Shown here: positions 30,001 through 54,000 of the stretch, piece by piece
How the letters are laid out: each line of letters begins with the position of its first letter
How positions within the stretch are numbered: position 1 is the stretch's first letter
Notes under the pieces: model-generated
Database searches by the model: none
What the model saw: the letters and a program-made list of their open reading frames with translations, nothing else
Told to the model about the DNA's origin: nothing
NCBI GenBank assembly: GCA_021735655.1
Contig: JAIPGM010000001.1
Location: 64,001 to 128,000, forward strand
Reading direction: 5' to 3'
Source: Candidatus Omnitrophota bacterium
GTDB lineage: Bacteria > Omnitrophota > Gorgyraeia > Duberdicusellales > 4484-171
Length of the DNA stretch: 64,000 nucleotides
Program-made: the position numbers and the translations under genes

Positions 30001-33000
30001 GATATGGCCAAATTAGTTGAAGCTACTTTAACTAAGAAGGCTATAGAGGGAGTTGACACTGGCTTACGTATCGTTACCAAGGGTAAGTATTCTTTACTTA
30101 TTCGTCTTGATAAGAATACCGGAGACCCGATTGAGGGAGCAATTGAGAAATCAGCAAAAGGCTTAAAAGCAGCCTCGCGACTTTTCGGTAAAACTGAATC
30201 ACACAAGACCTTTACCTTTGAGGAAAAACTTGACCCGCGAACTGGTCGAAGCAGCGATGTGGCAAGACTAATAACTGATAAGACTGACGCAAACTGGTTT
30301 GGGCTTTATATCGTTGAAGATGTAACTCTTAGGCAAATTATTGCTGCTTTTACTGAAAATGGCACACTTTCCGGAATAAACGGCGTTGATAGTGGGTTAA
30401 GAGCCTTACAAAAAGAAGTAAATGTGATTGTAGTTGACGCTCAAGGGCGTCGCACAACCCAAGAAGTTACTCGTAGCTTATTCTTACGCTTTGATTTAGA
30501 AACTAAAAAGTTAATTGAAGGAATTGTTCAAACTGAGGATCCTAATACTGATAGATTGCGTCCGGATAGCCTTGAAAAACGTCAAAAGGGCCAGAGAATT
30601 ACTGATGATGATTATTACTGGTTTGTCCGCGATGTCAGAGAGCCAAAACCGTTTGATTTTGAAGGTGCTATACCGTTAGATTCTGGACGCATCATAATTG
30701 TTAATCGCGAGGATCCTAATGTTCCTGGGCTTTGGTATGTGGTTGATGCTGAGGCTGGCGATATAGTCTCAGCTTTCCGTCAGAATGGATCATTAAGAAA
30801 TATTAGAGGCCGGGAAACTGGTTTCCGAGCTTATCAGACTGAAGTTACCTTACGAGATGGTGATGGAAAAGCTATTTTAGATGACCAGGGCCAGGAAGTT
30901 AAAGTAACTCATACTTTACTTTTCAGGTTTGAGTTAGATGATCAAGGAAGAATTATGAAAGATTCTTTGGCTGAAGGTGTACTCCAGGCTGAGACTACTG
31001 AAGCTAAATTGCGTCAAGGGAAAGATGGCAAAGATGAAACTAATGATTATTACTGGTTTATTAATATGTCTAAAAGCCTTATATCGTTTAAGGTTACCAG
31101 CTATGATCAAGGTAAGTCAGTATTAATGATTTCTCTGCCGGAAACAGAAGCTGACAAAGATGGTTGGCGTCCAGTTAGAAGGTTAGAGGTTGATAATGCC
31201 AATCAGATTAAAGATTTAGCTGAAGCCTTAAAGAGAGCAGTTACTAATAATGATTATAGCGAGCTGGGTGAGAAAACTGACACACGGATTAAGATCGTTG
31301 AAGTGGGTAAAGACCGTCGTTACATTATAATGGATAGTAATGGAGAATATTCAATAGAGGTTCAGTCAAAAACCGAAAATGATGAAGAATATGTCTTTAG
31401 CGCTAAGGCCTTGGAATATGGTTATATTGATAAAGAGGGTAAATATTGGTTGTACCGCGGAAATTTAAAAACAGTTACAACCGAAGATGGCAATAATAAA
31501 CTGCTATCAATTCAGGTAGATGAGAAACTCAATCCAGTTATTGATCAGACCACCAAAAAACCTTTTACCCAAACCGTAACTGTAGTCGCGGCCAATAGCC
31601 AGGCAGTAGTTATCATATTTGGCGACAATGAGCTTAATGTTTTAGCTCGCAAAAATGGGGAGAGGATCGGTTACGGTCTTAAAGATAAGGAAGATGGGAG
31701 ATTGTATATCTTTACTGGTTATACTCGTAACGATGACGGAAGCTACTCTTTAAATAAATCGAGTGTTAAGTTACAAGATATTGTTACGATAACTGTTGGT
31801 TTTAAGCTTGTTTCTACGGCGATTGATGAAGAAATGAAACCGCTTATTGATCTAGACACCAAGACACCATACACTCAAATTGCTCCGATTATTGCTGCCA
31901 ATGATGATTGGGTAGTAATTTTAGTTAAAGATAATAAGCTTAATGTTTTAAATCGAGATGACGGGAAAACGATCGGTTATGGCCAGAAAAATCCTAAAGA
32001 TGGAAAACTGTATTTATATATGATTTATGAGATAAAAGACGATGGTAAATATTATTTGAAGAAATCACCGGTTGATTTAAAGGATACAAAAGTCGTAACT
32101 ATCGGCTATGAGCTTATTTCTACTGAGATTGATTCAGATATTAATATAGTAATTGATCAAGCTACTAAGAAACCGAGCACCCAATTTGCTCCGATTGTTG
32201 CTGCTAATGATAAAGAAGTAGCAATCCTGGTTAACGGTGATGAACTAGTCGTTTTAGACCGAAAGAAAGGTAAAGAAACTGCCTACGGCTATGTTAAAGA
32301 TAAAAAATTCTACCTTTATGCATCAATTGATGTGCTTAAGGCAATCGAAGCCGGTCGATTTTTAGAGACCAAACAAGTTGATCAGAACCTTAAACCGGTT
32401 AAAGATCCGGCCACCGGAGAAGAGATAGTTGAAAAAGTACCAGTAGTTGCTGCAGATAAAACAATTGCCGTTATCTTAATTGAGAAAGAAGCCCCGGGCA
32501 TTGAGAATTCACACACACTTAATGCTTTAAGCAAGGCTACTGGTAGAAAAGCACGCTACGGCTATAAAGACTTAGCCGATGATAGTCTTTATTTATTTGA
32601 TTTAGTTGAAAAGATCAAGGTTGTTCAAGCTGGTCAAAGCTTAACTACTATTAAAATTGATGAAAAAGTCAATACGCTTAGTACTGAAACATTACCAGTA
32701 GTTGCCTCTAATGATGCGGAAGTCGTCATTCTGATCGACAAAGAAGCGCCGGGTTATCCAAATACTAAAACTCTTAATCTTATAAATAGAGAAACCGGTT
32801 TAGTCACTCGCTACGGCTATAAAGAGTTAGATGATAATAGTCTTTGGTTGTTTGATTCAATTGAAGCACTTAAAGCTGTCCAGGCCGATCAAAGCTTAAC
32901 TACCACTAAGATTGACAAAAAGATAGGCACGCTTGAAACTAAAGAAGTACCAGTAGTTGCTGCTAATGATAAGGTGGCGGTAATCTTAATTGATCGACCA

Positions 33001-36000
33001 GCTCCTGACTATGAAAATTCAAAAACTCTTAATGTTATAAGCAAGGATAATGGTAGAAAAGTACGCTACGGTTATAAAGATTTGAGTGATGATAGCCTTT
33101 ATCTATTTGATTTGATTGAAACATTCCAAGCTCTTCGAGGACCAGGAACTTTAACTACTACCAAGATTGATAAAAAGGTAGGCACACTTGATACTGAAAC
33201 AATAACTGTAGTTGCTTCTAATGGTTCAGAGGTAGTAATTAATCCAATTGGCGATAAGCTTGTTTCATTAGACAAATCTTCAGGCCGAAAAATCTATTGG
33301 GGTCATCAAAATAGATTTGGAATGTTTTTATTCTCAATGCAAGATTTAACTTTAGTTAACGTTGGCGATCCTTTAACTGGAAGAAAGATTGATCAAAATG
33401 TAAATAGCACACCGGTAAGTGCAAAAGTAGTGGCTACTGACCATTCTAACCGAATAGTTATTTTAGTAAACGGAAATGAGCTTAATACCTTAGATGCTCT
33501 CGGTGAGGTTAGAAGTGATGGTTATGGAGAGATGGATAAAAACGGCGATTTATTTTTATATGGCACAGAGTTATTGAATGCAAGGCCAGGCCAGATTATC
33601 CCAATCTATCCGATTGATCCAGATACTGTTGAGGCCGATAAAGCTAGAGGGGCCAAGGTAATACTTAAGATTAGAGGGGTAGTTGGGGTGGATGGTGTTA
33701 CTACCAAAGCCGTTTGGTTTGAAGTTTATGAGGCTAAGAATTATGATGCTACTACCAAAACATTTACCGGCCAACCAGAATCAAGTGAAATCCATTTAAT
33801 TGAAGCTGGCTCTAAGCCGAAAAAACTATATCTAAAAGACGATAAAATAACCCTAGAAGACCTTTGGTCAGTAGATCGGGCTGATTTTGGCAATCGCCAT
33901 ATTGCTACTGTGGCTGTTGATAAAGATAATTTTGGTGAAGTTGCCAAGGCGATTTTAACTGGCAAAATTGATACCTTAGAAAAATCAGGCGTAACTATTA
34001 TGGTCCGTGAAAGAAGCGATAGCGCTATCTGGTTTGACGTATTTAATGAAACCGGAAAGCGCCTTAGCAGCGAAATCCATATAAATGGCGACAGTCAAAC
34101 TTATATTGTTACCGGTAAAGACTCAAGCGCATTAATGTTGCTTGATGCAGAGGAAAATGCCGACAAAGATGGTTTTCGTAAAGTTTTTAAAATTAACTTA
34201 AGCTCTCCTGAGTCGTTAGAAAAAGTTGCTAAGGCTTTACGTGATCCGGAGAGTAAAGCTTTACTCGGAGAGGTAACTGGTACAATTGGAAAGGTATTTC
34301 ATGACAATGAGCATATAATTTTGTTTGCTTTTGACAGCGAAGGAAAGCTATCTCGAGGTTTACTCGAAGAGGTCGGTCCTACGGCAACTGATCAGCCGCT
34401 ACCGTTTAGAGTAAGAGATGGAACCATCAGAGTTCTTTGGGGAGAGGATGCTTCACAAACTGTAATCGTTGATGGATCGGAAATGCATTATTTAAAAGAA
34501 CGAGCAGTTGACGCTAAGGCTTTTGAGGCAAAGATAAGAGAAGCCACCACCTTTAAAGAAGTAAAAGATTTTCTTGATAATACTCCCGATACTGGTTTAG
34601 TCGCTTTAATCGTCAGCCAAGATATTATTTTTAAGGGAACCCCGGCAGTATTGAACCGGATATATATTCCCGGGTTATTACCTTTATACGAAGTAATTTC
34701 CAATACCGAAACTTCTAAAGTTTCTGAGTTTGAAGGTAAAGTTGAGGCTCGTTTTTATCCCTACACTCAGGAAAGAAAACTATTAGATCCTAGCCGAAAA
34801 GACCTTTTAACTGTTTCAGGGATGATGACCGTTGACGAAGGTCAAACCTTTAAAGATTTGCCAGTTGGATTACAGCAGACTCTTACTGATAAATATGGAC
34901 CAATTGCTCCGGATGCAGCGATAGTCCATCGTCACTTCTATAAGCAAGACGGTAATAAATACGATGAAGTACGTCAGCCCGGCGGTAGGGCTGATTCTTG
35001 GTTGCAAGGCTATGTTATCGAAGTTGACCATGCTATCGTTGTTGGTGGAAAAGAGTTACGCCAGGTAAATGGTAAGGATCTTAAATATACCATTGAGGTT
35101 GATAGAAAAGGTAATTTTGAAATCGCCCGCGTACATATTGATCATGTTGAATTGGCAACTATTGTTAAGGATCCAGAAAGCGGTAATATAGCTGCTATTT
35201 TTAAACCGGAAACCGGTCTTGTCCCCGATGAGGCCATACTTAGGATTGCTCAATATATTGACATAAATGGTATTGATTCATTTAATGTATCGGATAGTGA
35301 AAAGCAGAAAATAATTGTTGTTGCTAACGATATTTTAGAAAGAGATCTAAGGGCAGTGCCGATTACCGATGGCGAAAGAGAGCTAGTATCTCAGTTGATT
35401 TCGCGAATAAGTTTTCAGGCTGATTTTGTGGCTAAAAAATACTATAAGCTTGGTCAATTGCATAAAATTGTACTTGCGGAAAAACCACGAACAATTAGCG
35501 ATATCATTGGTTCTGTTGGTAATGATCCGATAGCCCGCGCTAAGATTGATAATAGACTTAAGGTGATTAGCCAAGGTTTAGGCCGACAGATGCCACGCGG
35601 CGGAGTAGCAGCGTTGACTATTACCCCTAGTTTGGTTTTACAGCTCAATGGGAATATTATGCGTGAGTATCGTTTTAAAGAAGATCGTTTAGCCAGGCTA
35701 ATTGCTTTTGAACAAGGTCAGGAATTGGCAGTTAATGTAGCGTTTAATAACCGAGGTGATCCAGTTCAAACCTTTAAGCTTTCAAAAAGCGAGCATTCAG
35801 ACCGTCAGGTTGGCTCACAAGTAATTGCTTGGGGCCAAACTCCGATGGCCGAGCGTGATGGTGAAATTTCTGATGAAGCTGATAGCTCTGAAGCTAAAGT
35901 TATCTTTGAACAGGATATTCCGGAGACTGCTCGGGCATTTCAGGAATTTGCCGCTAGCTTGAAAGAGAAACATGGGGTAACGGTTACCGGAGATCTCTGG

Positions 36001-39000
36001 GAAGCGATGGGTAAAATGGGAATTGTTCCGTCAACCATGATTACTCGCAGCGTACTTTATGAATATCCGCATAGTGGTAATATTGGTTCAACCAGCTTTA
36101 CTTCACCGCTTATTGAAAATAACGGTAGGGTTGAGATTGATCCGCAATATCGTGATTCAACTAAACAGATTGAGATGCTTTTTGTGCCTAATGATCCGCA
36201 AGGCCGGACATTGGCAACTAGATTTATTACCGAAGAAGGGTATAACTGGGTTATTAATATGTGGGGGCTTAAGGGCACCGATGCCCCGTTAGGAGTTTTG
36301 CCGGCCAGCATAACTATTAAATATGAAAATGGTAAATATAGCGGTTATGAGTTTAGCCGCTTCAAGCAATCAATTAGCGGCGAAGAATTAAATGCTGAAT
36401 CAGGTTTGAATTTATATAGTGGCCTGCAGGCTTACGAATATGAAGTATTTAATTCCGCTGTTGTACGTAATGTAATTTATTCTTCACAGGCTCAACTTTT
36501 AGGCGAGCGTTATGCTTTTGTAACTGGCAGGCCGGCTAAGGAGATTTTAGGAACCTCAACTTTAAACAAACCAGCGGTTGAGACTTTGTTTTTTAATCCC
36601 AACTCATCTTTACGCAGCCCGGTCAGATCAGTGTTAACAGTTGAACAAGAGCTAGCTAATAAAATTATAATTCCTGAGATGATCGATGATCAACATTGGA
36701 TTACTCCGCCTGGCGAAACAGTGTTGATTCAAACCGATAAAGGCATTAAGCCGGCGGTTAGGGTTGTGGTTAAAGATCAATATAGCGTACGCTACGAAAT
36801 AGAAGAAGGTAAACAGATTACCTATATTGTTGCTTTAGAGAGTGAAGGTTCAGCAATCCATACTAGATTTTGGCAAGAGTCAAAATTCATCGGTGACAAA
36901 GCAATAACTAAATATCGCGTAAACATAACTGATGAGTGGAAGGCTGATTTAAAAGCTAGTGCAAAATATATAGCTTTTATGCCGCTTGTGCTTGCGGCAA
37001 TTGTGCTTTTAGGTTTTATTTTATCTAAGGTCGGCTTTACTCTAAGAAGGGCCTTGCAGCTTTTAGGATTAATCTTTGATGTCGTCATTAGACCGATACT
37101 TTTAATTCCTCATCTTTATAAAATATGGAAATACGGAAGCAGCAGTACCGGAGATTTCTTTAGACGTTGGCTTTGGCCGTTTGGCTTAAAGGAGTCTAAT
37201 CCTTATGTTCATGCTTATAAGGTTTGGCTAGCTATTAGCGGAAAAACCGACGAGAAATTTACTGAAGGCATTAACAACCCCGACACTACTGATACCACTG
37301 AAGCCGAGATTACTAAATTGTTTGAGGAGATGTATGAGTTCTCAGTTAAACTTAAAGACGCCCCTGATTTTGTATTGTATCTTGTTTGGAGAAAGAGGAT
37401 GGGGGCAACTGAAGCTGAAATGGAGGAGCATAAAGACATCTGGTTTGATATTATTGTAGCCAACCAGAACTTTACAAAAAAAAGCAAGGGTACAGTTACC
37501 ATGCAGCATCGTTTTCATTATGACGATCTTGGTAATTTGTTCAGAACCCGTAAGTTCATTGATCGTTATGAACAATACAGAGAAAGTGGAAATCTTGACC
37601 CTTACCGAAAGTATGTTGATTTATTAAACAGCGATCTTGGCGCTATCAACTTATCGCGCCGTCAGCTACTTGAAATAATCCACTATAGTGGCAGTTTAAT
37701 TAATTCATTAAAGTATAGGGGTCGACATTCTGAGTTTGGATTACCTAGCGAAGCAATACTTTGGAAAACATTTCGCACCCTTGACGGTGGACCTTCAGGA
37801 TTATTTGGTTGGTTGGGCATTGCTCGAATACTTTTCAGACAAGGCTCGATATTTGCTATAAGTTTCTTTGTATTCTTAGCTAAATACTTACCGTTAGCAA
37901 AAATTGTAGCCTTCCTTTTTAGTAATCCTTGGATTATCTTAGCTTTAATTGCTATTGCCCTTAGCTTAGGAATATATACTTATTTAAGAAGAAATTACGA
38001 CAAGGTAAGTCATATGGGTCCGGCCTCAAGAGCATTAGCTTATCCTTTTGTTTTAGTTGCTTCAATTGTTAGAAGCGTGTTGAATGCCTATACTTTAAGC
38101 ATAGCTGCCATATTTGCCGGTGGAGTATTAATGAATGATGCGGCAGCTTTCAGTGGTGTAACTGGGTTAGCTTCTTTTTCTGAGGCAGCTTTAGGTAGTT
38201 TAAAAGCAGTTTCCTTAAGTGATCCTTATGTATTAAGCTTTATATTGATGCTAGTTGCTTTGTTTGGGATATTTGGCTTTTTGGATAATATGATTTCAGT
38301 TAAATATAACCCAACCAAGAAAGAGTTCGGCTATGCACCTTTGAGAGACGCAAAGTGGTTTAGTGAAATTGTTTTTTCTGGTGGAATGATGTTGCTTACC
38401 TTTGGTATAAAATTTGTCCTAAACTACTTTACTTTTAAATTTGTAATGGTTCCAACTAGCAGTTATTTGGCGAGCTCTTATGCTCCGCCAGCTTGGGCTT
38501 TTAAAACATATTTGGCTATAATGGCTATTGTAATTGTTATTGTAATTACTGTAAAACTTGTTGCTTATATTAGAAAGCTTAATGCAGTTAGAAAGTCAGA
38601 TACGGGTAAAGTTATGGCAACAGTATGGAGTGATATCAAATCTTTAAAACTTGTTGCTTATGTTAGAAAGCTTAATGCAGTTAGAAAGTCGGATACGGGT
38701 TCAGTTATGGCAACAGTATGGAGTGATATCAGATCTTTAGGAAGAGGCGACATTGGCGATTGGATAGGATTTGCCTTTAAGTGGTTTAGTTTAATTGGCT
38801 TGCCTTTGTTGCTTTATTTCTATGGGCAAGTATTTTTAGTAATTGTCCTTTGGCTTCCTTTTGCTGCTTTTTATATACTGGATACTTTCTTTGTTTTCTA
38901 TATTTTAGAGGGTATAGCCGGATACTTGCGTGGCAGCTACCTTGGTTTAAACCGAATAAGGAATTGGCCGCAATTAGTGGCTAATTTTCCTCATTTAAAA

Positions 39001-42000
39001 CAGGCCATTAGGGCTAATTATGCTCATCGGGGAATTCGCAAGGCTGATGGGTCACGCCTAACTAAAGAAGAAAGAGACTCAATAGTTGAGGAGATTTGGA
39101 ATGGAATAATAGAGCATGTTTTTAAGGAGGATAGACTTTTCGAGGAAGAAAGGGATCGATATTCTTACACGGCTGATGGTGGTCCCAATCTCATAAAAGC
39201 ACCGGAAGAGGATGAGGCTTTCGATCGAATTATCTTTTTTGCAACTTCCATGTTCATGCATACACCGCGTATGCCCAAGACCTGGGCAGACTTACGTTCC
39301 CATGCTGTTGTTGATCCGGCTAATGATGAAGATGTCTTTTATAATTTTGAAGGGACAATTACTAGTTTAAATGAAGAAGCAAGGGTAGATCCTGACGATG
39401 ATTCTCTTCCCGGTGTACAGAAAACATTCTTGTGTTATGAGATTTATCTTTATTCTAACCAGTGGTTAAATTTTAAACGCCGAATGCAGGCCTCAGGAAA
39501 ATTCAGGAATACTGAAATTCAGGAGTTACAGAACATATACGATGCAGTTGTTAACGGAGACCTTACTTATAAATTAAAGTTAAAGGATGGAAGAAAGAGG
39601 CTAAGTAAAGCTTTGCAGGACGAAGTTCGTCTTTGGGCCTCTTATAGGTTCCAGCCGCTTATTCGAACTGTTCGGGGAATTGAATATCGTCGAGATGCTT
39701 TAAAGTTGATTGCTAATAGTGTTTATTTCAGGGGGCTTGGCTATACTGATGAGCAAATCAGAGAGGAAGTTAATAAGAAGTTTCGGTTTGTGCTTGGATA
39801 CCAAAGCTATGCTCGACAACAAGCGGATATGGTAAATCCAGAGAAGAAACTTTCAGAACGAATTGCAGCTAGATCTCGCGTAGAAGGCGTCAAAAAAATA
39901 ATGGAACTTTTCCCTGATATATTCGTTGCTAACTTAACTAAAGACGGAATATCAATTTGCATGCAAGGCGGCGAAGAAATAGGCAGCAAAAATGAGAAGG
40001 ATTTCTTTTGGTTAGGTCCTGAAGTTACTCAAGGTAAACCTGAACATCAAAAAGTTCTTTCAATCTGGGTTGATCACGACGGCGGTAATTATGATCATGT
40101 TGATACAGTGGATATGAACCAGGATGATTACTTTGAAGAAGCTTTAAAGCATCCGTTAGTCTTACAGGAGCATAGCCCTGATGTTGCTATTGTTGGTATT
40201 CCTGAGCATATTTTTACTGCTAGCTTTGGTAATGAGGGGAAACTGCTTGCCTTCTCTGATAGCACCTTTGCGAACATGGTTCAGAGGGTAATTGCTATGG
40301 GCGGTACACGTATGCATTATGGTCACCCGGATAGTTTCCGTAAACGATTTGCTAAACGTATGGGCTGGACAGCTTCTTCAAGCAAATTGAACGAAGATAT
40401 CTTTGCTGGATATCGGGCAATACGCTACGGTAAACGAATTAAGTTTATTGAATATCGCCGAGTCGGTAAGGCCCGTGAGGTTAAATTCGCGACTTCAGTA
40501 ATTTTATTTCAGAAATTCGGACGTGGTTCTGGTGAACAAGCTCATGATTTTATGTTATATGAACTTTATGAATGTCAGAACTTTGGTTTCACCAAAGGAA
40601 TGTTTTTCTTGATCAGCTCAATTGGTTTTTATATCAGGAAGCCGGCTGTTGTCTTAGCTGTCCAGGGTTACATCTTTACCTTAATCTTTATGGGTTTAAG
40701 TGGTTTTGTTTCTTTTCCTTTAGAAGCTTTTCTTGGAGTCTTGGGTGTTTTAGCTTCTCAGGGTATTGTGGCTACCGGTTGGTTTGAATTGATATTGCGC
40801 AAGGGCGTAATCCGAGGAACTTCTGATTTAATCGCGATGATGGCTACTGGAAATGTTCCTTTTTATATGGCTCATGTTTATACCAATGCTTTTGGGTTTT
40901 CTGAAGCTCAGGCCGGTATTGCTGGATACTTAGGAAGTGGTCGTGGACCGATGTTACATCATACTCCGATTTTCTATCCTAATTTTAAGTTAAGCTTATA
41001 TGGATTTTTAGAAGGAAAACAGCTTTCGAAAATGATGATTGTTAATATGGTATTTATTATAGCCGGTATAGTTATCTGGCAGAGTCCGCCGATTCTTTGG
41101 TCAGCCTTATTTATCTTGCTTCCTTTTGCGGCTTACTTTTATCCTAATATGTCTAACCCGGGAGCATTACCGATAGGCGTTACTGTCGGTAGATGGCTTG
41201 AGATATATAAATCTGATCTTTCTTTATGGCGCAAAACCATAGCTTCTGATAATCCTCTTTGGGAAGGTAAGAAATTAGACGTAGTGCTTCACGGAGCAAT
41301 ATTATTTCCTGTATTATTAATAGTCGGTGGTTTTATAGCTCTCTTTATTAAGTTACCGGTTACCGTAGGCCGTTGGTTAAATTCTCAATTTTCTGACCGA
41401 GGCCATGTAATCTCGACCTGGGCTATTAATTTGATTGGTGCGGTGTTTGGTGTGGTTTACTTAGCCAATATGTTGGTTGATAAATTACCTCAATTGGGCA
41501 ACATCATTGAAGCTTCACCGATGGCTGCGGCAATAGTTGCGGCTATAGTTATTGCTCGAGTCCTTCTTTACATTGGAAGTTACTTTTATAATTTGATCGC
41601 TGCCCGTTCTCATCAGGGAGTAAGTGAGGCAGTAGCGGCTTTAACTTTAGCTGGAATTATTCTTGCTGGGTTGAAGTGGGGTTTAGCGCTTAAGGCTTTA
41701 GTAGTTGGCTGGTTTAGCTGGTTACCAGCTTTGTTAGCTAGTCCGATTGGCCCTTGGGTTGCTGCAGTCTTATTGGTCCTTGCAGTCGCAGCAATTGTAA
41801 TTATTGCTTTACCGAGACGTATGCAAACTCATCCTACAGTACCGGCTTGGTTTGTTATTATGGGTGGTTTAGGTTTGCTACTAACAACATTAGGGGTACC
41901 AATAGTGATAAATACCCTTACTATATTTGCTGCGATTGCAGTGGGTTCGTTTGTTAATGGAATAGTTGCTCAGGATTTACCAAGAAAGGCTAAAGAGAAG

Positions 42001-45000
42001 AGATTAAAACGTAACCAAGCATTACCTTACCCGGCAACTATGCCAATAACTAATAAATTAGATCGTTCGCTTACTGAAAGTGAAAAAGAAAAAGTTATTT
42101 TAGCTTTTGGCGGAAGCGATGCCTTGGCAACTAATGGTATAGAGTTGAATGATCAAAATCTAGTAATGAGTCCGGCTCTTTCAGCTCCAGCTGAAGTAAG
42201 AGGCGGAGTTCTATATATAAATCCTAATACTTTAAGAGGTCCACCAGAACAGCTAAGAGTGATATTTGAAGGCCATGAATTAGCTCATTTTTTAGGAATG
42301 GATGAAATTCAAGCCAGACAATATACCATCGACTATCTTTTAGCGAATGGTTTACTTGAGAGCCACATTGCTTTCTTAGAGAATAATTCTATTGGTCTTG
42401 TAGCTGATCAGGAATGGTTAGAGGCTTTGAGCCAGAAATCAGTTTCTTTGGATAACGGAATTGAGCTTAAAGTTTATAAGTATAGGCCAGGAGTAAAAGT
42501 TGCTGTTGCTCAGATAGATCCGTCAATTTTACAGCCGCATATTTTAGTTTCCAGTGAGTTGGAAGGTAAGTTGCATTCGGTTGATCGTCGCTCTAACTAT
42601 GTATTGTATTATGATCATGAGACTGGCGAGCGTCTAGATAGCTTTCCTGAATCACGCCTAAAAGTATCTACGGTTACTAGTTTAATTGAAAGATTCCAGG
42701 ATCTTCATCCAGATTCACGAATAGAGATTATTACTGGTAACGAAAACCTTTTCTATAACAAGCCGATAGTTACAGTTATAGCCAATAAAGCTTACCATGC
42801 TGTCGGCGTTGACATAGAGAATCGTAATTATCCTATGCTTGTAATTTGGGCTGACGGTGCAGTAACTATCGAGGAAAGTGTTAGTTTCGAGTTTACTGAT
42901 TTTGATCAAAATGAAGTCAGAGTGTTGATTAATGGGAAAGAAGAAGATATACGCTATGCTACGGTTATCCAGTTAGTTTTAAATAAACAAGGTGTTGTTA
43001 ATCCGGGATCCCAGTTATATTTCTTTGATGATATCAAACATTTATTTGCGATGCCACGATTCAGCTCAGATGACTTTCCAGGAACTTTACCCAAGGGTTT
43101 GATGAGCGGAGCCATATTTTTTATGGCTGATCAACTTCTATCTGAAAATGCCCAGCGTGTAATCGACTATTACGATTCACAAAATCCAAAAACTGTTCAG
43201 GATTTTAATTTAACAAGCACCGTTTTTAGCAGAAGTGCCGATGGCCAAGATCGGGTAAGATTAATCAATATACCAGCAGAGTTATTAGAAGCTAGGTTGT
43301 TTGAAGCCGGATACTTACCTGATGACTATTCTATTGATCAAAGAAGAGGTGTAATTACTATAAAGCTTAGAGAAAATGTTTATCCTTTTCATATTATTGG
43401 AGTTACAAGTGATGGATTGGTGAAGGAGATAGTAGTTAATGGTAAATCTGGTAAGGTTGGTGTCACTGTAAGAGAAGCTGCCACTATTGCTCAAAAAGAG
43501 GGATTAATTAAGGCCGGAATAGTGGATCAAGGGATGACCGTTCGTTTAGATGTGGGTGATTTACGTTTTGGTAATGTTATAGTGGATAAACCTGGGCCTG
43601 AGAGGGCTAGTTCTTTAATCGTTTATACCCATATGCCTCTTGATAATGGTAAACAAAATAGACAATCGCCTCCCAGCGATGATAGATTAGGAGGAAGGGC
43701 TAGCCATAACGTGGCTGTGGCTGGTCCTGCTTCTAAGCCTTTGGATAATGGTCGACCAGGAAAGACCGAATGGAGCGATTTAATGAATCGCGTTGATCGG
43801 GTAAATGGCCTTAGGCAAGATGCACGAATAGCCGTAGTGCTTTATATAGTAGGAGTTGATCAAGAAATCGATGCCGGAACAAGAACAGCTCCTTTAACTG
43901 CCGGAGAACTACTGGTTAATGTTAATGGCGTAGGCCAGATAACTTCACGAAGAATTTTCCGAATAGTCGGTGAATTAAATCTTGCCGGAGTTACTTTAAC
44001 TCCGCTTGATAATGGAAGAGATAATCAATCCTCCCTCAGCGTTTCAGGGACCGACTTAAATCAATTATCGGGTGGATCAAGAACGCGGGCCTTAGAAGGC
44101 TTAAGTAGCTTCTACATAAAAACTAATTCAGTACCGGAGGGTATTCAAGAATTGTTTGATAGTCCTTCCGGATTATTAATAACCGTATCTGATTCTGATG
44201 GTGTGGTTGGCTATGCTTGGATTGATGTCCCAGCTGATGAGGATCAAGTACCAGCCAGGGTAGTCGTTAGTTTAAGTGACCGTCAATCTTTGGCAGTAGC
44301 TGAAAAGCTTAACCATGCAGTAATAAAAACCTTTATCGAAAGAAGTATCCTAAGTGGTAGTAAATTCCTCTTATCAACTCCTAGTGGAGAAAACCTTAAC
44401 TTCGCTCAATGGTTAAATCAACAATCACAATTCATCGCTGGTTTAGCCCAAGCCGGAATAGTTGTTGCTGACATTCAAACTAGTTTTTTAATTGAAGAAG
44501 GTAAACTAATGACTGTGACAGTAGCATCAAGACATCAAGATAAAACCAGAGCAAATAGAAAACCTTTAAATAACGGAAAACAAAATAGACAATCGCCTCC
44601 CAGCGATATAGATGGATCCCTGTTAAGGGATCAGGTAAGAGGAAGGGCTAGTCATGACGTGGCCGTGACTGGTCCTGCTTCTAAACCTTTGGATAATGGT
44701 AAGGATGTCGAAAGAGCAGAACATGTATTAGAACAAATAGGGACTGCTTTGGAGGGAGTTAAGGAATTAGTAAGTGCTCATTCTATTATTGTTGGCTTAT
44801 TAGTTGCCACGGTGCTAGTAGCGGTTAGCATTGGTTTATTCTTAGCCATCTGGCGCATATTCTTTTCAGTAAGTTGGTGGTTGCGACGATTGGAGAAGGT
44901 AGAGGCTAAGATGCAGATTCATGAGTTTTTTGTTCGTTTAGATCGGGATAAAGCTATAAAGCTTGTACAAAATATTTTAGCCAACTTCAGGGCAGAGCTT

Positions 45001-48000
45001 AAAAAAATTGATAAAAAAATAAATAAAGTGCACAATCGTAAAGAGCGTCTTCCCGAACTGGTTTCCGAGTCTACTTTTGTAGAGGATTTTGCTTATCAGT
45101 CTGATGTAAATGGGGTTACAATTATCGAAGGCCACATGGAACAAATATTAGTTCCTAATCCTAAACGTGAAGATTTAGATTCCAGGATAAAGGGATTAAG
45201 GGAAAGGGAAGAACTCATAACTAAACAAATATCTAAATTGGAAGGTATGTTGACTTCTTGGGAAGAAGCAGCATTAAGGTTAAGATTAGACCAATTGCAA
45301 AAAGAGTTAACCTCAACCCTAACTACTACTCTTGTATATGACTTAGATAGTGAATTAGTTTGGTGTGGAGACTTCGACTATAAATATGGTCAAGAAATTG
45401 GTGATTGGGTTCACTCAAAAATGAAAAGGGTAGTGAATCCAAGGTATTTGCAGCTTGAACAGGAGATAGCAGAAGTAGCTACTAGGTTGGATCGATTATT
45501 AGATGATAGTGCAAGCAGGGAACAAAGAAGACCCACCCCTCTCGACAACGGCACAGAACCTAGCGTGTCTTCTTATCCTCATCCCAGAGCAATACTTTGG
45601 GATTTAGATGGCACCTTAGTCAATACCATGCCACAGGTGTTAGAGAGTTTCGGAAAGGTAATATATTGGATCAGGACGGCCAGTTCGATTGAACCACAAC
45701 AGTCACAATCCCAAATAGCTCAAGATTATTTCGAGCATAAGCCTTGGAAGGCCTTAACTGATCATTTAGTTGATGTTATAGCTCAAGCTCAACAGGATCA
45801 TGTTTCTCAGGCTCAGCTAGCTCAGGTCGCACAAGAGCTAGGCCAACGCTATCAAGCTCCAGCAATGAATCAGGCTGATGAATTAGTTTTTAGTTTTGCT
45901 AAGATTTACGAGGCGGTATTATTAGATGAGGTTGAACATAATCCGCCAGCCTTATTTCCAGGAGCTTTTGCATTAATACATAACGCTAATCAACAGGGAG
46001 TATTACTTTATATTGCTACGGGTACACCGCAAAGGGTAGCTGAAGCTATAGCTATAAACTTACGCCTTGATAATTATTTTAGACGTATATATGGTGTACC
46101 AGTTGATAGTCCCTATCCTTTTGTTAATGGAAAGGCAGATATTTTAGTACAAATAGAGACTGAGCTAGAAATTTCCAGCAGTCAGATTGCTATTGTCGGT
46201 GATTCGGCAGGTGATGTTGCAGCAGCAAGACATCCGTCTCTACCGGAAGGATCTAAGTTTGTTTCAGTCGGTATTGCCAGCAGCCCTGAGAAACGTCAAG
46301 AGTTAAAAGAGGCTGGGGCTGATTTCATTGTTCCGGATTTAGAGTTTACTGGAGGCCAGATAGTTAAGCTATGGTTTCCGGCGGTTCCAGTTGTTCCAAA
46401 TTTACCGCAACGTAACGATAGTTTACCTTTTCAGTTTGTTTTTATGACGGTAACTAAATCAAGCCAAGCTCAAGATTTACAGGTTGAGCCTATTGAATTA
46501 AGGCCATTTTCAAGTCGGATCATCGGGTCGGTACTTGAAGGTGATTATACCGGAGCTCCGGCAGAACTTTCAGCTCGTCAAGTAGACTTTAACCGGCCGT
46601 TAGCCGATCTTTTTCCGATCGTAAGAGCCGCTATCGAGACTAATGATGCTGCTGAATTCTTTTATCTAGTAGAAGGTATCGTAGCTTCTGAAGTTCTTAA
46701 TCCGGCTGAAAAGCGCGAAGCATTCCTTACAATTTCTGCCTGGAGTAAATTTATGCCTAATACAATCAAGGGCGAAGGTTACTGTTCTTATTCTTTTGAA
46801 TGGTTTGCTAACGCTGCCTTAGAGCATCAGCATAGCAATCAAGGTGATCAAGAGTTAAGAATCGGATCTTTGGGCTCAGGCGATGGTTTAGCGATTTATC
46901 AGAATAGAACCTTAATGAGAATACAAGGAGTAACTCCTAAAATTACCCAGTTTGAAATTGATCCGAGAAGTATAGATCGATCTAAGGTTCTTAACCCCGA
47001 TGATGATTATGTTCAATGCGATCTTTCAAAGCTAGATCCTGAGGTACGTAAAAGATATCAGGGCCAATTTGATGTAATTTACCTTAATAATGTTTTACAT
47101 GAACTTTTTGCCTTCTGCGGTGAAGAAGGCGTCAGAGAAACTTTACGATTGGCTAATGAGTTTTTAAAGCCAAACGGAAGAATAGTCTTTCGAGATGGAT
47201 TGTATCCGCACAACGGAAACACCTATGTTCGGGTTGCGGTATCGGAACAGTATGAAAAAGCCTTCCTTTATTTTATCGCTAATTTTAACTGGCCAATACC
47301 TCTTTTTCTGGGATTTGATGAGGATGAGGTAGTGTTAAGATTCGGAGACTTAGCTAAAATTTTAACCAAAATTAAATTCATACAACAACGAGCCTGGGAT
47401 GATCGTTATCCGGTAGAAGACGAGATGCGGCAAGTTTATCCTTACGCTAGTGTTTATGATTATATGAAATATTTTCATGAAGCTGGATTCGTTAGCGAGT
47501 TTATCAGATTGGGTAATGAGCAGGAAAGCTTACAGCTGTGGAAAGAAGTTTTCCCCTTTAGACAGATGCTTTCACTTGAACAAATTGAAGATGCTGGAAT
47601 CTCACCATTGCAGGAGGCGAGCATTCCGGAAGCGAATTTTACTTCTAAGCCTTTGGATAATGGCAAAGATGTCTCAAGGGCAGAACATATTTTAGGACAA
47701 ATGGATAGATTTCCTCATTCAGCCAGCACTCAAAGCATAGTGTTACATTTTAACCCAGAAGCATTCGCTCAAAGTTTTAGCCCTACAAGCTTTGCTGAGA
47801 GAGTAGCTGAAGTAATTACTTTTAATCCAAAAACTACAGCCGGAAGAGAGTTAGGCCAAACTCTTGATAGAATAGTAAATCAATTCCAGAGTCAAAAATC
47901 AGTATTCGTTCCTTTAATTATTAAATCAGGCCTAGATAGCCCAGAATCATTTGGTTATAAGTCTATAGCAGATTTCTTAAGAAGTAATTTTAATCACAAT

Positions 48001-51000
48001 ACTCCGGCTTTACAGTTTATCGTTATAACTGATAGCGTCAGTGACTATCAAGGATTTCTAGATTCTGGTAGTCAATTCGTTTGGGAATTAGTAGCAGTTA
48101 ATAAATTCGATTTCACGCAGAACACCCCCCTCGACAACGGCTATCAAAACCCGGCTGATTTAGCTGCCCGAGCTCGCGAGCTTGGTTTGGAAAATCTAGC
48201 TTTAAATATTGAACAAAATGTAGTTACTACCCAAAAAGACTTAACCGTAGTAGCTGATATGTTTGCTATCGGCCAAAGCCATATCTTTGTTGGTTGGGAT
48301 CAACCAGGGATACATGATAATCAGAAGCTTCAGGTGTTGGGTCAGATCCGTCGTCGTAGTAAGCAATACCCAGGAAACCTAAAAGCCTTGGCTGATAACT
48401 CAAGAAAACTACTTGAAGGTTATTATGCTGGTAAAGGAAGATTCGATGACTACGAAGTAGGCACTCCAGAGACAACTGAAATATCAAGTCTAGTAACTAA
48501 AGAAGGAGAATTAATCCCACAAGCGGTAGCTGCTTATCTAGCTCTAGAAGCTGAAGGTTTAAGCTTAGCTAATCAGGTAGTTTGGGCTGAACCTGCCGGT
48601 GGTAGAGGTGAACGTCTCAGCAAAGAACAACCAATACCTTATCGAGGCATTAAACCAGCTCTTCTTATTGCTTTAATCAGTCAAAACTCTCAATTTGCCA
48701 GCTTCCAGACTCGTCAGATTATGGGTTGGCAGAGATTAGCCAATCAATCTCAAGGAGGGCAATTAGACCTAATTAATTCAATCATGAGTTCAGAAGATAA
48801 CCATGAAGATCTACGTCGTCTTTATGAACAACATAATTACTTTGGCGCTAAACCCGATTCAGTTAACCTACATCCACAACCATTAGTCTTTGCTGTAAAC
48901 ACCTACGAAGGTCATTTTGCGGTTGAAGACGATGCTTATCCTTATCGTTTAGTTGAAAAAGCTCATGGCCATGGTGATATCCATATGGTTTTTCATCAAC
49001 AAGAGGTTGCTAAACATGCCCTCGATCGGGGAAGAAAATATATCGTCTTCTATCAAGATACTAACTTACCGATATTCAGAGCTCTTCTACCTACTTTAGC
49101 CATAACTGAAAGAGAAGGTTATGTTTTAAGCTTTATTGCTTCACCGCGTCACCCTGGTTCAGCAGTCGGAGCTTTAGCTAAATTAACGCATAAGCAAACT
49201 GGCGATGAAACCGTAATGAACGTTGAATATATGCTTTTAGGTGATATGGATGTAGCCGCCAAAGGTAGTGAATTTACTCCATTCCCGGGTAACTTAAACG
49301 GTCTAGTCTTAGCTCTTGAGCCTTATCATCAAGCTCTTGAAGAAGCTCATGGCTTAGTACCAGAATTAATCAATCCGAAAGACCCTGAGCGTGATCTAGA
49401 AGCTTTAAAAGTAATCACCTTGCCTGATGGCTCAACAGCTCATAAACTTAAATCAGAAGCTCGAGCTGAAAATAATATGCAGGATATTGCTGAGATTATG
49501 GGTGATAAAGGTCCGGTAAGAGTAATCCAATTTGAAGATGGAACCTGGATCTTCTCAGCTGCCAAAAATAGCCAAGAATTAGGTAGGCAAGCTGTAGCTA
49601 AAGGTATTCCTTCTGAGACCATGGCTTCAGCTGAAGCTGACTTCTATCGTAATAATCGAATTGCTCTTGCAGTTGCCGGTTTACAAGTAAATGTTAATGG
49701 CCACCAAACTCAATCTCAAGGCGTACCCTACCAGGACGGAGCCAAGATCTATCTTGATCCGTTTATGTATCCGACTCTGGCCTCAGTAGTCGAAGCCTTC
49801 CGTAACGGTGGTTCACTCAGCGAAGAATCAACTTTGGTCGTTGAAGGTGAGGGACGAGTAAACTTTAACCACCTAGAACTAAACGGAACTTTAACTATCC
49901 ATGCTGGTGAAGGAGTAACTATACTCGTAGACGGGTCTTTTGAGACTGTTGGTACCTGGCGCTTTAGAAATTTAAGCCTTGAGGAACTAAGTAACCCAGC
50001 TATCGGAGATAACGAACTGATCAGAGGTTATCAGTTAATCAGAGATGGTGGCTTAAGATACAATGTAACCGAACCAGGAAGTTATACCTTAACTCAAGAT
50101 GGTTTAACTAAGAATCAAAGTCCTTTGGATAATGGTAAACAAACTTTAGACAATCAACGGACGTTCAGATCTAATAGAGCATGTATAACACCGACAATTA
50201 TCATTGCGGTGGCAGTGGCTTTATCATTTTTAGTTGGAGTAGAAAGATTTTTTACTTACTTTGCAATAGGAATATCCGCCCTAGCTGTGATTTTTAGTCT
50301 TTACTATTCAATTATTGAATTAATTTCTTTTATGAACAATCAGTCTTTTGATAGTAGAAGGCAAGGAGATAGGCAGGATGACCCTAGACGTGAAGAGCTC
50401 AAACGAAGATTAGAACAATCAGATACTGAGAATGATCGAAAAAGACCGTTAGATAACGGTAGAGAGAAGACCATCGTAGATTTATCCGTAAATTTAAAAC
50501 CCGGCCGTTATCATTACCCGGCCTACGCACCAACTGCTGATCAAGACGAACGTGAACCAGACGATGAAGAACGTGGAAGAATTATCGCACTTTTTGGCGG
50601 AAGAAATGTATTTGATCAAGCAGATTTGATTGTAAGAATTGCTCCGAGATTAGAATGGGTTGCTGAGGTTGACATTCTAAGAGAACAACCCAAGAAGTAT
50701 TTATTAATTAATCCTAATGTTATTCGGGGGCCACCGCAGTATGATTCACAACTTAAAATAATTTTTGAGCAGCATGAAGCATATCATTTAGATGGTGATG
50801 ATGAGAATGTCGCTACAAATAAAACTATTGAGTATTTAGTTTCAACTCCAACCGCAGTTAACCAACCAAGATTATTAATTAGCCATCTTCGTTTCCTTGA
50901 AAATAATTCTTTAGGCATAAGGCCGAAGCGAACATGGCGCAATCGCCTCGTTCGACGCATTGATGTGCAAGATTTACCAAGCACAAGACAGAGAACCGAT

Positions 51001-54000
51001 CAAGAAAAAAGATTGATTCAAGAAGTTATTGAACGAAACCAAAAGGCCCGGGAATTTTTGCAACCAGTTGAAATATCAGAAAGCATTGCGGTTGATCCGC
51101 TCTTAGCTGATGCGGTTTTGGCTAACTCACCTGAGGATTATCGCAACGCCATGCCAGCCGAAACTTTTTATTATGAAATGGTTGATATAACTATTTTACT
51201 TGATGAATTAGATGATGATGCCGAAGGAAAAGCCGTGTTTGTTTCTTTTGCTAATCAACATGGCTTGACTTATACCAAGGTTATTACCGTTAATCGGGAG
51301 TCTGCTGGAATTGTTCATAGGGTATCGGGAGTAATTAGCGATTTAGATGCTCATATCGGTGACACTATTCAATATCAGGGAAGTCAGAATGAAACTAAGT
51401 TTGCTCCGGCCGCCGGTAAGGAAATTTTTATTCATTGTGCTTGGGTTGGTTCAAGTTTAAACCCGGAACAAATTCCCCAAAACCAACTTAACGCAGTTAC
51501 GATTCCCGAAGATTTCAAGGCTACTAGTGAACAAAGAAGAGCTAAGCGACGCACTAATCGTCGTTTAGTGGTTAGTGCTCAAGGCAGATTTGACCGACAG
51601 AAGGAAATAGTTGACTTAGCTGAGTTACCGGAAGAGGTCAGGAACTCGATAGTTGAAAAATTAGAAGGCATGTTTACGATTTCTGGGGCAACCGATTCAA
51701 GGCGAATTGTAAGAATTGGCGAAATTGTTAAATATGACAATCAAGATCAGGGATACCCTTTGACTTATAAGGTTAGCTGTGTTGAAGGAGAAATAGCTAT
51801 CTTAACCCAAGCGGTTGAAGCAGTTTTAGCTAATCTAGAGATTGAAGTTGATGGTTTGGGAGGAATTTCCAAAGAAACTATTAGTGGATTAATTTTAGCG
51901 GCCTTAGAATTTGGTGTAGCTGAGGCAAGAGCAACTGAATTTGTGCCGATAGCCGGATTTTTAACTTGGGTTGAACAAATTTTAACTGCAGTTGATGCTT
52001 TAACCAACCAAAAAACTCACTCACGTTTAATTACTAGAATTGCTGAAAATACTGAGACATTACCGAGTACATACCGGGAAGCTGCAGTAGTAGCTTTAAG
52101 CGGTCATGATGATCCAGGCACTCTGTTTAAGAAAGTGCATTCGGCGGCAGTAGCTGTGTCGGGAAAGATTTATCTTAAAGAGGATTCTGAGCTAGCAAGA
52201 AAACAGAGTCTTGAGCCGCAAAACCCGACCGAACAAAGAGTTATAGAAGTCTTTACTAGTAGAATTGATGAATATGAGGCAGCTTTAGCTGATCCAAGCC
52301 TATCTGATGAGATGAAAAGTAAAATTTGTTCATTCCCGTTGGTGCTTTTACAGAGTTTAGGTCACACCTTAGCAATTATGCGTTTCTCTGATCCAGTTGT
52401 ATCGGCTCATGTAGCTGTTTTTAGAGGAACGCAATTTAGTGTAGTCGGCTTTGCTATTGATTCACGGGCTCAAAGGGCAATGTTTAATAAAGCTTTTCAT
52501 GAAGTATCAAAAATTACCACTGCAATAATTAGAGAAATTCAGTTTCCCGAGGCTGATTTAGCTGTTGTGCTTGAAGATGTTCCAGAACATGCACCGTTTA
52601 TCCTTATGTTAAGACATGATTTAAGTGATTTATCGCAATATCGCCAGTTACGTCAGAGCTATCCGAATCTGGTGGCAATTGTAGTTATTGAAACCGGAGT
52701 TTTGCATTATGGTATTGCAGCTCGAGCCGAAGGTTTTCCGGTTTTAGCTGAGGCTCACCTTGTTGTTGATGGACATAAGATCTCAGTTTGGGAAGCCGTG
52801 CCTGAGCGGGAAGCTGATGGTCAAAGAGTAAGAGCAATTGTTGATACTGAGGCCGGGATTCTAACAGTTCGTCCGGATAGCCAGACTGCCAATCAGGCTT
52901 TATCGGAGGAGATGGCCGAGGACGCCGTAGATGCTTATGTATTTTCTCGAAGAAGTAATCCAGTTATCTTAGCCGATGGCAGCACTGTCTTTTCAGTAGC
53001 CGTAATTATGGATTATCTTGAACAACTATCTGATATTGCTCTGGCTTTGGTCCACTTAATTGGTTTAGTTCGGGTTGAGAACTTATATGATGGAATCGGC
53101 AAAGAAGGCATCTCGGGTCAAGGTATTTACTCCGATCAAGAGGAAGAGGCTTGGGTTAATATATATCGTGAGATTGCCACTAAGTCTGGTGTTCGGGTAG
53201 TTCAGGTGAGGTTACCGGATCGAACTTTGATTGATAAAAATCCGCCGGCTTTCCACGGTAATGATTTAGAGAATTTAGCTTTTCTGCTTGAACCGGGTGA
53301 TGGGCGTAATATTGCCACAGTTCATCTAAGAGCCTTGATACGGGTTAACGCTGAAGGAATAGTTGCTAACCAGGGCCAGTCGGGTTCTTATGCTGAGCTT
53401 AGAGCAATGTTTCCAATGGTTACTGATGCGCAAGCTTGGGATCAAGCCATGACCTTAGTTGATGAAGTCAAAGCGGAGTTAGGCGATGATGGTGTTTTAG
53501 CCGAAGGATTCAGCGAAGGGGTAATGTTTGAAACTTCTAGCGCTATTGATCAGGCTGAAACCCTAGCGGCTAATTCAAAATTTGGCAGTGTTGGCAGCAA
53601 TGACTTGATTTCATTTTCATTGGGTAAGACTCGTGGTGGTCAGGACACTACTCAATACCAGCGTGAGTTTAGCTTTATGGTTATGCGTGAGCTTAATCGA
53701 TTAATGGACGCTGTTTCAGCTGATTATCCATTATGTCTTTGTGGTCAGCTAGCCTCGGTTGATGAATTTTTATTATTTGCTGCTTACTCAGCTTCACAGG
53801 GAAGAATAATCGTTCCTAGCGTTGGAGTTGGTCAAGTTGCTTATGTTAAAGAATTTCTCCGACAAGTTGATCCGCAAAGGTTAGCAGCTTTATTTGATGT
53901 ACACTCAGCCGAAGATTTTAATACTCGTACCATAGCTGGCTTAAGAAAAGAAGCAGCGAGGATTAGAGGCCAGATTAGATTAGCTAGCCAGCCATTATTA

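Follow-up and report, generated by a model that had tools for sequence, protein, structure and literature searches.

The stretch of DNA described here, a 64,000-nucleotide (nt) segment of contig JAIPGM010000001.1 from Candidatus Omnitrophota bacterium (referred to below as the window), is occupied by part of a single giant open reading frame (ORF). Frame +1 is open over the whole 64-kb window (21,333 codons, 0 stops), the other five frames contain 952-2749 stops each, and the GC content is 40%. Along this ORF a pentapeptide, PLDNG, recurs at the borders of protein-sized modules, and four related linker segments, named here cassettes A, B, C, and P, are located at junctions of this kind (Table 1). 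The cassettes had been noticed in a first-pass annotation made from the letters of the sequence, which described them as duplicated linkers with PLDNG at both ends and proposed that they release small peptides.

The giant ORF and its recurrent pentapeptide

Judged by its sequence, the window lies inside a single giant gene, which belongs to the 'multi-enzyme' class and comes from an uncultivated Omnitrophota bacterium. With at least 21,333 codons, the ORF lies above the 10,000 codons that delimit the giant proteins of this phylum, and the Pfam families found along it are many and mutually unrelated, with none dominating and with HAD, methyltransferase, HATPase_c, and sugar-metabolism content as in the multi-enzyme class. 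Hydropathy analysis identified 53 transmembrane (TM)-like segments, often paired. The archaemetzincin-like domain encoded upstream of cassette A is also matched by PDB entry 2x7m (E=2.6e-4), with the motif aligned. C39, S8, and SecA-like domains were not detected in Pfam scans of the window, which contains neither end of the gene; C39 or S8 peptidase and SecA-like domains have been reported at the N-termini of Omnitrophota giant genes.

PLDNG occurs 30 times in the window ORF compared with 0.015 occurrences expected, and LDNG 33 times compared with 0.38 expected. The junction consensus is [KRT]-P-L-D-N-G-[KR], one-off variants are nearly absent, and the junction sites split the ORF into 36 stretches, most of 90-830 amino acids (aa), the two longest comprising 3,424 and 5,487 aa. 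Pairwise synonymous-codon identity across the 30 PLDNG sites (0.42 vs 0.455 expected) corresponds to saturation, and since the codons are free to vary, what is conserved in the motif is the peptide and not the DNA sequence. CTC, a rare Leu codon, was found at 7 of the 35 motif sites (3% overall), often as CTC GAC AAC GGC, which may reflect groups of sites sharing ancestry or a mild codon preference at the motif. We did not find PLDNG as a described motif in the literature.

The motif was shown to be located at natural protein ends. The HAD domain starts 11 aa past a site, HATPase_c stops 4 aa ahead of one, and M54 stops 9 aa ahead; in an AlphaFold model of the phosphofructokinase (PFK) module, computed with an alignment, the site on either side of the module lies in a tail of pLDDT<50, the core being confidently predicted. 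At 8 sites (2.4 expected, P=0.003), a TM or signal-like segment begins no more than 30 aa past the motif, and none in the window ends within 30 aa before a junction site. Three modules (8932-9180, 11188-11445, and 21469-21690) open with a homologous unit consisting of PLDNG, basic residues, a hydrophobic helix, an AxA-like motif, and a second helix. These units share 34-41% aa identity and 73% DNA identity over 83 nt, one of them carries a Tat-like SRRVIP, and they look like repeated N-terminal signal or anchor cassettes.

Table 1. Features of the window discussed in the text, in window coordinates.
Feature	Position (nt)	Strand	Basis or remark
Internal part of one giant ORF	1..63999	+	frame 1, stop-free, runs past both window ends
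35 (P)L[DN]NG junction sites	4243..63735	+	motif count, window ORF
L codons of junction sites, first part	4246, 7909, 8935, 9895, 10942, 11200, 21472, 22540, 22642, 23464, 23500, 25987	+	
L codons of junction sites, middle part	42448, 43639, 43741, 44005, 44566, 44689, 45541, 47653, 48130, 50125, 50449, 54049	+	
L codons of junction sites, last part	54643, 55627, 56464, 57091, 57991, 58933, 59644, 60841, 62872, 63457, 63721	+	
Cassette P, GKLTRQSPPSESETSPIGDDRLEVDGASSSVAASPTSSSHRDEPHR-PLDNN, without 5' site, 3' site decayed	21682..21837	+	HMM i-E 3.3e-23
Cassette A, PLDNG-KQTRQSSPSDRLEVDGASSSVAASPTSSK-PLDNG, 34-aa stretch, right after the metalloprotease domain	22537..22653	+	self-blastn; HMM i-E 4e-24
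Cassette B, PLDNG-KQNRQSPPSDDRLGGRASHNVAVAGPASK-PLDNG, 34 aa between two sites	43636..43752	+	self-blastn; HMM i-E 1.4e-22
Cassette C, PLNNG-KQNRQSPPSDIDGSLLRDQVRGRASHDVAVTGPASK-PLDNG, 41-aa stretch, local partner of B	44563..44700	+	self-blastn; i-E 7.5e-30
Mini double site, PLDNG-KESDLQI-PLDNG, 7-aa spacer	23461..23511	+	
Two small modules (88 and 187 aa, internal PLDNG 44002-44016) between B and C	43753..44562	+	no known family
Junction with cassette tail, TTG-coded PLDNG, and next 13 codons as at the 3' end of C (TSKPLDNGKDVSRAEHILGQM)	47641..47703	+	85% over 61 nt
Junction with CCTTTGGATAATGG coding of PLDNG, then cassette-head codons AAA CAA ACT (KQT)	50122..50145	+	
Archaemetzincin-like Zn-metalloprotease domain (HELGHLFGINHECGCKTCIMH...CKSC)	22123..22509	+	Pfam M54 1.5e-8; NCBIfam archaemetzincin 1.5e-13
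Thioredoxin domain	~12,115	+	Pfam
FKS-type 1,3-beta-glucan synthase domain	39202-40491	+	Pfam PF02364, 7e-48
HAD domain	45.6 kb	+	Pfam
Methyltransferase domain	46.9 kb	+	Pfam
PEP-utilizers_C domain	53.0 kb	+	Pfam
HATPase_c domain	58.6 kb	+	Pfam
PFK domain	61.0 kb	+	Pfam

Four cassettes and their ancestry

Protein and DNA profile searches of the window recovered exactly four copies of the cassette and no more decayed ones. The positions that the first-pass annotation gave for three copies and a partial one agreed with translations, self-blastn, and profile search, its translations read as written, and the nucleotide strings it quoted were found (CAATCGCCTCCCAGCGA at 21700, 43663, and 44590; GCTAGCCCTACTTCTTCT at 21781 and 22618; CCTGCTTCTAARCCT at 43726 and 44674). 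Its description of the cassettes as near-identical was too strong: overall DNA identity is 76-89%, synonymous divergence (dS) within pairs is ~0.25, the copies differ by 11-24% and by in-frame indels, and only tracts of up to 57/58 nt come close to identity. PLDNG does stand at both ends of A and B; the 5' end of C, however, reads PLNNG, and the partial copy, P, exists but sits inside a module, with no 5' PLDNG and with PLDNN at its 3' end. The decayed copy proposed at 7906 proved in the profile search to be just an ALDNG site followed by KDLE, with no cassette. The best self-blastn alignments pair 22537-22652 with 43636-43751 (81%, E=3e-19), 43643-43752 with 44570-44700 (77%, E=1e-24), and 21742-21799 with 22579-22636 (98.3% over 58 nt).

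The full translations of cassettes A, B, and C are PLDNGKQTRQSSPSDRLEVDGASSSVAASPTSSKPLDNG, PLDNGKQNRQSPPSDDRLGGRASHNVAVAGPASKPLDNG, and PLNNGKQNRQSPPSDIDGSLLRDQVRGRASHDVAVTGPASKPLDNG, respectively, and the predicted two-site peptides start with KQTRQSSPSD... and KQNRQSPPSDD... (34 aa each) and with KQNRQSPPSDIDG... (41 aa), all ending in PLDNG. Spacer lengths span 29-45 aa over the four copies, which share the head KQxRQS[SP]PSD and the tail PxSK and vary, with indels, in the middle. The cassette peptides contain no aromatic residues and no Cys or amphipathic features, and 81-90% of their residues are small, polar, or charged, a composition typical of disordered spacers. An AlphaFold model of 43486-44760 made without an alignment was uninformative (mean pLDDT 34).

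At the nucleotide level, codon identity within the cassettes lies far above saturation. Codons for the same residue are identical in 21 of 24 cases between B and C, 22 of 25 between P and A, and 13 of 15 between A and B, compared with 9.6, 8.2, and 5.6, respectively, predicted at saturation. Within the local pairs P-A and B-C, the Nei-Gojobori method gave dS of 0.24-0.27 and nonsynonymous divergence (dN) of 0.07-0.09 (0.27 and 0.09 for B-C), and between pairs dS of 0.4-0.8 and dN of 0.36-0.51, corresponding to dN/dS of ~0.3 and 0.5-1.1, respectively. Identity is distributed as a mosaic: between P and A, 57 of 58 positions match in the core and 27 of 32 in the head (Fisher P=0.02; small sample), and in the head of B and C 30 identical nt follow 5 differences among 15 positions in the preceding site (P=0.09; small sample). 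Sequences up- and downstream of the cassettes are dissimilar (z<2), with one exception, the 13 codons past cassette C, which recur past site 47653 with 85% DNA identity (z=4.7); the alike module starts that the first-pass annotation had placed after 44686 and 47650 are the same case (44678-44738 vs 47642-47702, 85% in self-blastn).

Codon identity, dS, and mosaic tracts point to duplication or conversion and not to convergent selection on the peptide. The comparison of synonymous divergence that had been suggested for the copies gave identity far above saturation, a self-comparison of the window recovered them, and the proposal of intragenic duplication or gene conversion, to which the unrelated flanks also speak, is supported. 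The cassettes are real internal duplicates, which arose and have been kept alike by intragenic duplication and short-patch gene conversion. A larger duplication including flanking modules was considered and ruled out (flanks with z<2, bracketed modules unrelated). Apart from 47650 and 50122, the TTG-coded site (CCTTTGGATAATGG) is found only where cassettes A, B, and C have their 3' ends; at 50122 the KQT head follows it, which suggests that cassette parts were copied onto other junctions. Duplication of a cassette is by itself an ordinary evolutionary process, and what makes it valuable here is that it points to the junction code.

The presence of 17-30 identical nt without synonymous change could also be explained if the conserved nucleotides acted at the RNA or DNA level and not as a peptide, for instance as a structured RNA, an internal start, or a target of site-specific recombination, or if the copies were assembly artefacts. 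Both explanations are very improbable. The consensus fold reaches only -8.9 kcal/mol with negligible covariation, on which ground an RNA element was dismissed, and no Shine-Dalgarno sequence with an in-frame start is common to the copies (cassette B was inspected, together with the alignment of copies). An artefact of the assembler is made unlikely by the 11-24% difference between copies, their in-frame indels and unique flanks, and the open frame kept throughout.

The same divergence data bear on the suggestion that the cassettes encode functional freed peptides (signals, toxins, or regulators) present in several copies, as in a prohormone or a precursor of ribosomally synthesized and post-translationally modified peptides (RiPP). 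Three copies with two sites, the head and tail conserved in all copies, and an analogous conserved double-site spacer (xFGAVVGAV) in two relatives would agree with such a role. However, dN/dS ranges from 0.3 to 1.1, the middle is variable and indel-rich, Cys, aromatic, and amphipathic features are missing, no conservation was found outside this gene, and recent DNA ancestry accounts for the likeness of the copies. Weak and uneven constraint, together with absence from relatives, argues against a conserved bioactive peptide, and we consider this explanation improbable; any cassette peptides that are freed are more likely to be by-products or spacers for processing.

At the P/A locus, the order is PLDNG, two TM helices, P (PLDNN), protease, PLDNG, A, PLDNG, so that P and A bracket the archaemetzincin-like protease and P tethers its domain to a membrane anchor of two helices. 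The two small modules that B and C enclose matched no known family and no PDB entry. Enclosed modules and neighboring ones are mutually unrelated, and each local pair forms a direct repeat around a unique insert, the footprint expected if recombination at linkers inserts or copies modules. As the codons of PLDNG itself are not conserved, only the longer cassettes could serve homologous recombination. The cassettes show the linkers to be the recombinationally active part of such giant genes. The first-pass suggestion that modules are shuffled or acquired through the cassettes is plausible in view of the direct-repeat brackets and of the homology to relatives, which ends at the junction with differing neighbors beyond.

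Other repeats and unusual features occur in the window. A tandem A/E/K-rich repeat at 15142-15652 (periods of 36, 51, and 123 nt, matches up to 96%) encodes ...AEKAAEAKKVADAEK..., and the antisense ORF opposite it (15042-15638, 198 aa, minus strand) is probably spurious, although it is the sole entry for the window in the program-made ORF list, from which the giant frame is missing because it extends past both window ends. A long array of diverged protein repeats of ~85-100 aa (255-nt period, 25-59% aa identity) is located at 29902-33561, and a separate perfect-length 93-nt tandem duplication with 94% identity at 38552-38739. Translations of 42028-42438 and 50515-50958 reveal a further paralogous pair (35-38% identity across ~150 aa), which shows that some modules are also old internal duplicates. 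The PF02364 domain, typical of eukaryotes, here stands within a bacterial giant ORF, in its 5,487-aa PLDNG-free stretch.

Relatives and their private junction motifs

The closest relatives of the window are fragments of Candidatus Omnitrophota giant genes with 46-54% identity; the window itself contains no marker gene. Relatives of the PFK module include a 974-aa partial Omnitrophota protein that fills an entire 2.9-kb contig (51% identity) and a 10.7-kb contig of an Omnitrophota metagenome-assembled genome with one open frame throughout (46% identity), and an exhaustive HMMER search added further fragments of 2,300-7,400 aa. No match was returned in homology searches for the region that holds cassettes B and C (43456-45600) or for nine modules further downstream (54061-60852). 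In the long relatives, PLDNG is not recurrent (0-1 LDNG each), and a profile HMM found no cassette.

Several relatives carry recurrent motifs of their own. The motif [SAG]SSP[VILAST] was observed 24 times in P0053 (1.0 expected), 21 times in P0099 (1.5), seven times in P0042 (0.6) and in P0090 (0.5), and four times in P0045 (0.3); S[LM]TG occurs five times in P0043, DETSA five times in P0052 (0.01 expected), ARTS four times in P0069 (0.09), PGKSPA three times in P0051, and SSSA five times in L001 (0.08). SSP is not enriched in the window (6 vs 3.9 expected). The private motifs occupy the same borders, the homologous PFK module being bounded by S[LM]TG on both sides in P0043, by SSP in P0042, P0045, and P0053, and by SSSA in L001. 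Counted downstream from the conserved RLTSL, PLDNG is reached after 14 aa in the window, SSSA of L001 and SLTG of P0043 after 13 aa each, and SSP of P0045 after 11 aa; upstream of SGGDC, the distances are 47 aa in the window, 27 aa in P0053 and P0043, and 21 aa in P0042. Homology to the relatives ends at the junction, and the modules beyond it differ from relative to relative. Complete single proteins are found between SSP sites of P0053, namely a receiver domain, with Pfam profile position 1 at stretch residue 12, and a protein kinase, and Tat-like signals (TRREFI, TRRNFI) stand directly after the motif.

Paired sites with short spacers recur in these proteins as SSP-ATFGAVVGAV-SSP, SSP-THFGAVVSAV-SSP, and SSP-...VGAAVAAV-SSP in P0053, SSP-VGAAVGAV-SSP in P0045, and ARTS-SITTT-ARTS in P0069. 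The SSP examples follow the pattern SSP-x(1-3)-(F)GA[AV]V[GSA]AV-SSP (P0053 residues 3147-3162, 3959-3974, and 4647-4678; P0045 residues 1688-1701). Homology between the window cassette and these spacers was considered and rejected, the HMM finding none, so they are analogues only; a resemblance of 'SVAASPTSS' to 'SAVSSPTGE' was likewise an unsupported impression. P0073, a close relative of the N-terminal part of the PFK module, contains two near-identical anchor segments (residues ~1025-1070 and ~1526-1575, ...CL[AV][VL]PAMLFMPELAWVKPAVI...), which shows that repeated anchor cassettes occur elsewhere in this protein class.

In another Omnitrophota bacterium, an ordinary operon encodes a free-standing PFK-module homolog that carries a signal peptide. 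At this locus (L003, positions 1-23453, ENA k141_1845039), the PFK-type gene (1,150 aa) stands in an operon with PGI, oxidoreductase, HAD, GH130, and PGM genes, directly after a gene for a 3,846-aa multi-domain protein. The locus has the appearance of the giant ORF in an 'unfused' state.

No dipeptide forms succinimides more readily than Asn-Gly, and several proteins are known to undergo self-cleavage that depends on Asn. Cleavage might proceed at PLDNG without a dedicated protease, through autocatalytic Asn-Gly succinimide chemistry or co-translational 'skipping', with the cassettes as spacers, and the fact that a site-matched protease was not seen in the window would suit this mechanism. However, the motifs of relatives (SSP, S[LM]TG, DETSA, ARTS) contain no Asn-Gly, the 2A consensus D(V/I)ExNPGP is absent, and the context flanking the sites is unconserved, whereas self-cleavage normally needs a folded context. 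We regard protease-free cleavage as unlikely, though slightly less so than a role for the cassettes as functional peptides.

Alternatively, PLDNG may remain uncut and serve as a hinge, docking, or modification motif in one giant membrane-tethered multi-enzyme scaffold, with the cassettes as flexible tethers duplicated by chance. This explanation, which we consider doubtful but by far the most serious of the alternatives, agrees with the disorder-like character of the cassettes, with copy P, which is clearly an internal tether with a decayed site, with the failure to find a matching protease in the window, and with the literature, which leaves one-chain action of these giant proteins open. An invariant pentapeptide almost without variants would, however, be unusual in a passive linker. 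Its location exactly at natural protein ends, the signal- or anchor-like N-termini that follow it (Tat-like signals in a relative), and the variation of the private motif by lineage at the same module borders, as if enzyme and site co-evolve, likewise speak against an uncut chain.

A polyprotein interpretation and comparison with known systems

The interpretation that we favor, with moderate confidence, is that the giant gene is a polyprotein-like fused operon in which PLDNG is the processing site and the cassettes are disordered spacers between sites. An operon would have been fused into one polyprotein of protein-sized modules (enzymes, kinases, and membrane-anchored units), and PLDNG would be the recognition site of a dedicated processing protease. 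The cassettes would be four paralogous disordered spacers at junctions, A, B, and C having a site at either end, and recombination at them may insert or copy modules. Peptide release from A, B, and C depends on PLDNG being cleaved; if it is, 34-, 34-, and 41-aa peptides, respectively, would be freed, and P would stay as a tether between the membrane anchor and the archaemetzincin-like protease. The cassettes probably mark, as far as can be read from the sequence, where the giant protein is cut into ordinary-sized enzymes. Two features characteristic of polyproteins were found, namely a recurrent short site at the borders of protein-sized units, and units that resemble stand-alone proteins with their own termini and signal or anchor.

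Several observations weigh against this interpretation. A protease matched to the site was not identified in the window, the sole protease domain being archaemetzincin-like, and we know of no archaemetzincin described as a sequence-specific endoprotease. The two longest stretches contain no PLDNG at all, so not everything is protein-sized. Gaps of at most 41 aa account for 4 of 34, compared with ~2.2 estimated for random placement (1-exp(-41/610) x 34), and as this is little above chance, double sites need not be under selection. The direct-repeat footprint rests on two cases only, and three relatives (P0041, P0044, and P0073) have no obvious private motif.

Extended to the phylum, the same interpretation would hold that Omnitrophota multi-enzyme giant genes encode true cellular polyproteins, with whole operons in one frame, each lineage having a private motif that co-evolves with a dedicated protease, and with double-site spacer cassettes recurring and gene conversion at them feeding module insertion and shuffling. 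We offer this generalization tentatively and consider it somewhat less probable than not to hold in full.

Giant proteins of Omnitrophota have been described as 'Archaeovorins' (West-Roberts et al., 2023, bioRxiv 10.1101/2023.11.21.568195), and a 'multi-enzyme metabolic cluster' class has been distinguished among them (bioRxiv 10.64898/2026.06.07.730766), with ORFs reaching 85,000-147,000 codons (bioRxiv 10.1101/2023.11.21.568195; bioRxiv 10.64898/2026.06.07.730766). The window ORF resembles them in its more than 20,000 codons, tiling by unrelated Pfam families, many TM helices, poor sequence conservation, and best matches in Omnitrophota, and differs in its recurrent private junction motif and double-site cassettes, which are not described there. 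The cleavage points of giant proteins were stated as unknown, and their lack blocked the splitting of the proteins into independent polypeptides for structure prediction (bioRxiv 10.1101/2023.11.21.568195); the 2026 survey, which counts 5,761 Omnitrophota proteins of 10,000 aa or more, is silent on cleavage, linkers, and motifs (bioRxiv 10.64898/2026.06.07.730766). We found no literature joining 'Omnitrophota' and 'polyprotein'. To this known class of giant genes, the junction motif, the private motifs that relatives have in its place, and the double-site cassettes thus seem to add a new feature. A junction motif conserved as a peptide provides concrete predicted cut sites and makes the polyprotein hypothesis testable by proteomics, and, with its lineage equivalents at the same borders, permits giant proteins to be split in silico into their units. 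Fusion of an operon combined with a private protease site suggests a route by which cells whose genomes are very small could produce dozens of enzymes together in constant proportions.

Among known processing systems, asparaginyl endopeptidases (legumain) cut at Asn-Gly in 11S seed globulins and cyclotide precursors, and C39 peptidases cut double-glycine leaders. The window site is short, as in their substrates, and contains Asn-Gly or, seen as L-D-N-G, has Gly at P1 and a hydrophobic residue at P4; in contrast to these systems, domain scans of the window revealed neither C13 nor C39, and the motifs of relatives are unrelated. In detail, L at P4 fits a double-glycine leader, but P2 is Asn and not Gly in 35 of 35 sites, and PLDNG[KR] contains no NPGP as required for 2A-like skipping. 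The indel-rich middle, dN/dS of 0.3-1.1, and lack of a match outside the gene similarly set the cassettes apart from multi-copy bioactive peptides.

Polymorphic toxins also carry junction motifs, such as VENN in CdiA and PxxxxDPxGL in Rhs proteins. As there, a short conserved peptide stands in the window at the border of apparently exchangeable modules, with the surrounding DNA as a possible recombination substrate. Unlike CdiA and Rhs, which have one junction per protein, the giant ORF has at least 35, and these border metabolic and regulatory enzymes, not toxins.

Viral polyproteins provide a parallel in organization, namely protein-sized units split by a short site, with small peptides carrying two sites. 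Picornaviruses encode 3A-3B(VPg)-3Cpro, with three tandem copies of 3B in foot-and-mouth disease virus (FMDV), and retroviral Gag contains the spacer peptides SP1 and SP2. The picornaviral order of anchor, small peptide, and protease resembles the TM hairpin, P, metalloprotease, and A of the window. Unlike viral polyproteins, the window gene is cellular and, to our knowledge, at least three times longer than the largest of them, and its cleavage is inferred from sequence. By analogy with viral 3B or SP1/SP2, a role of the cassettes as processing spacers or tethers would be more economical than that of bioactive peptides.

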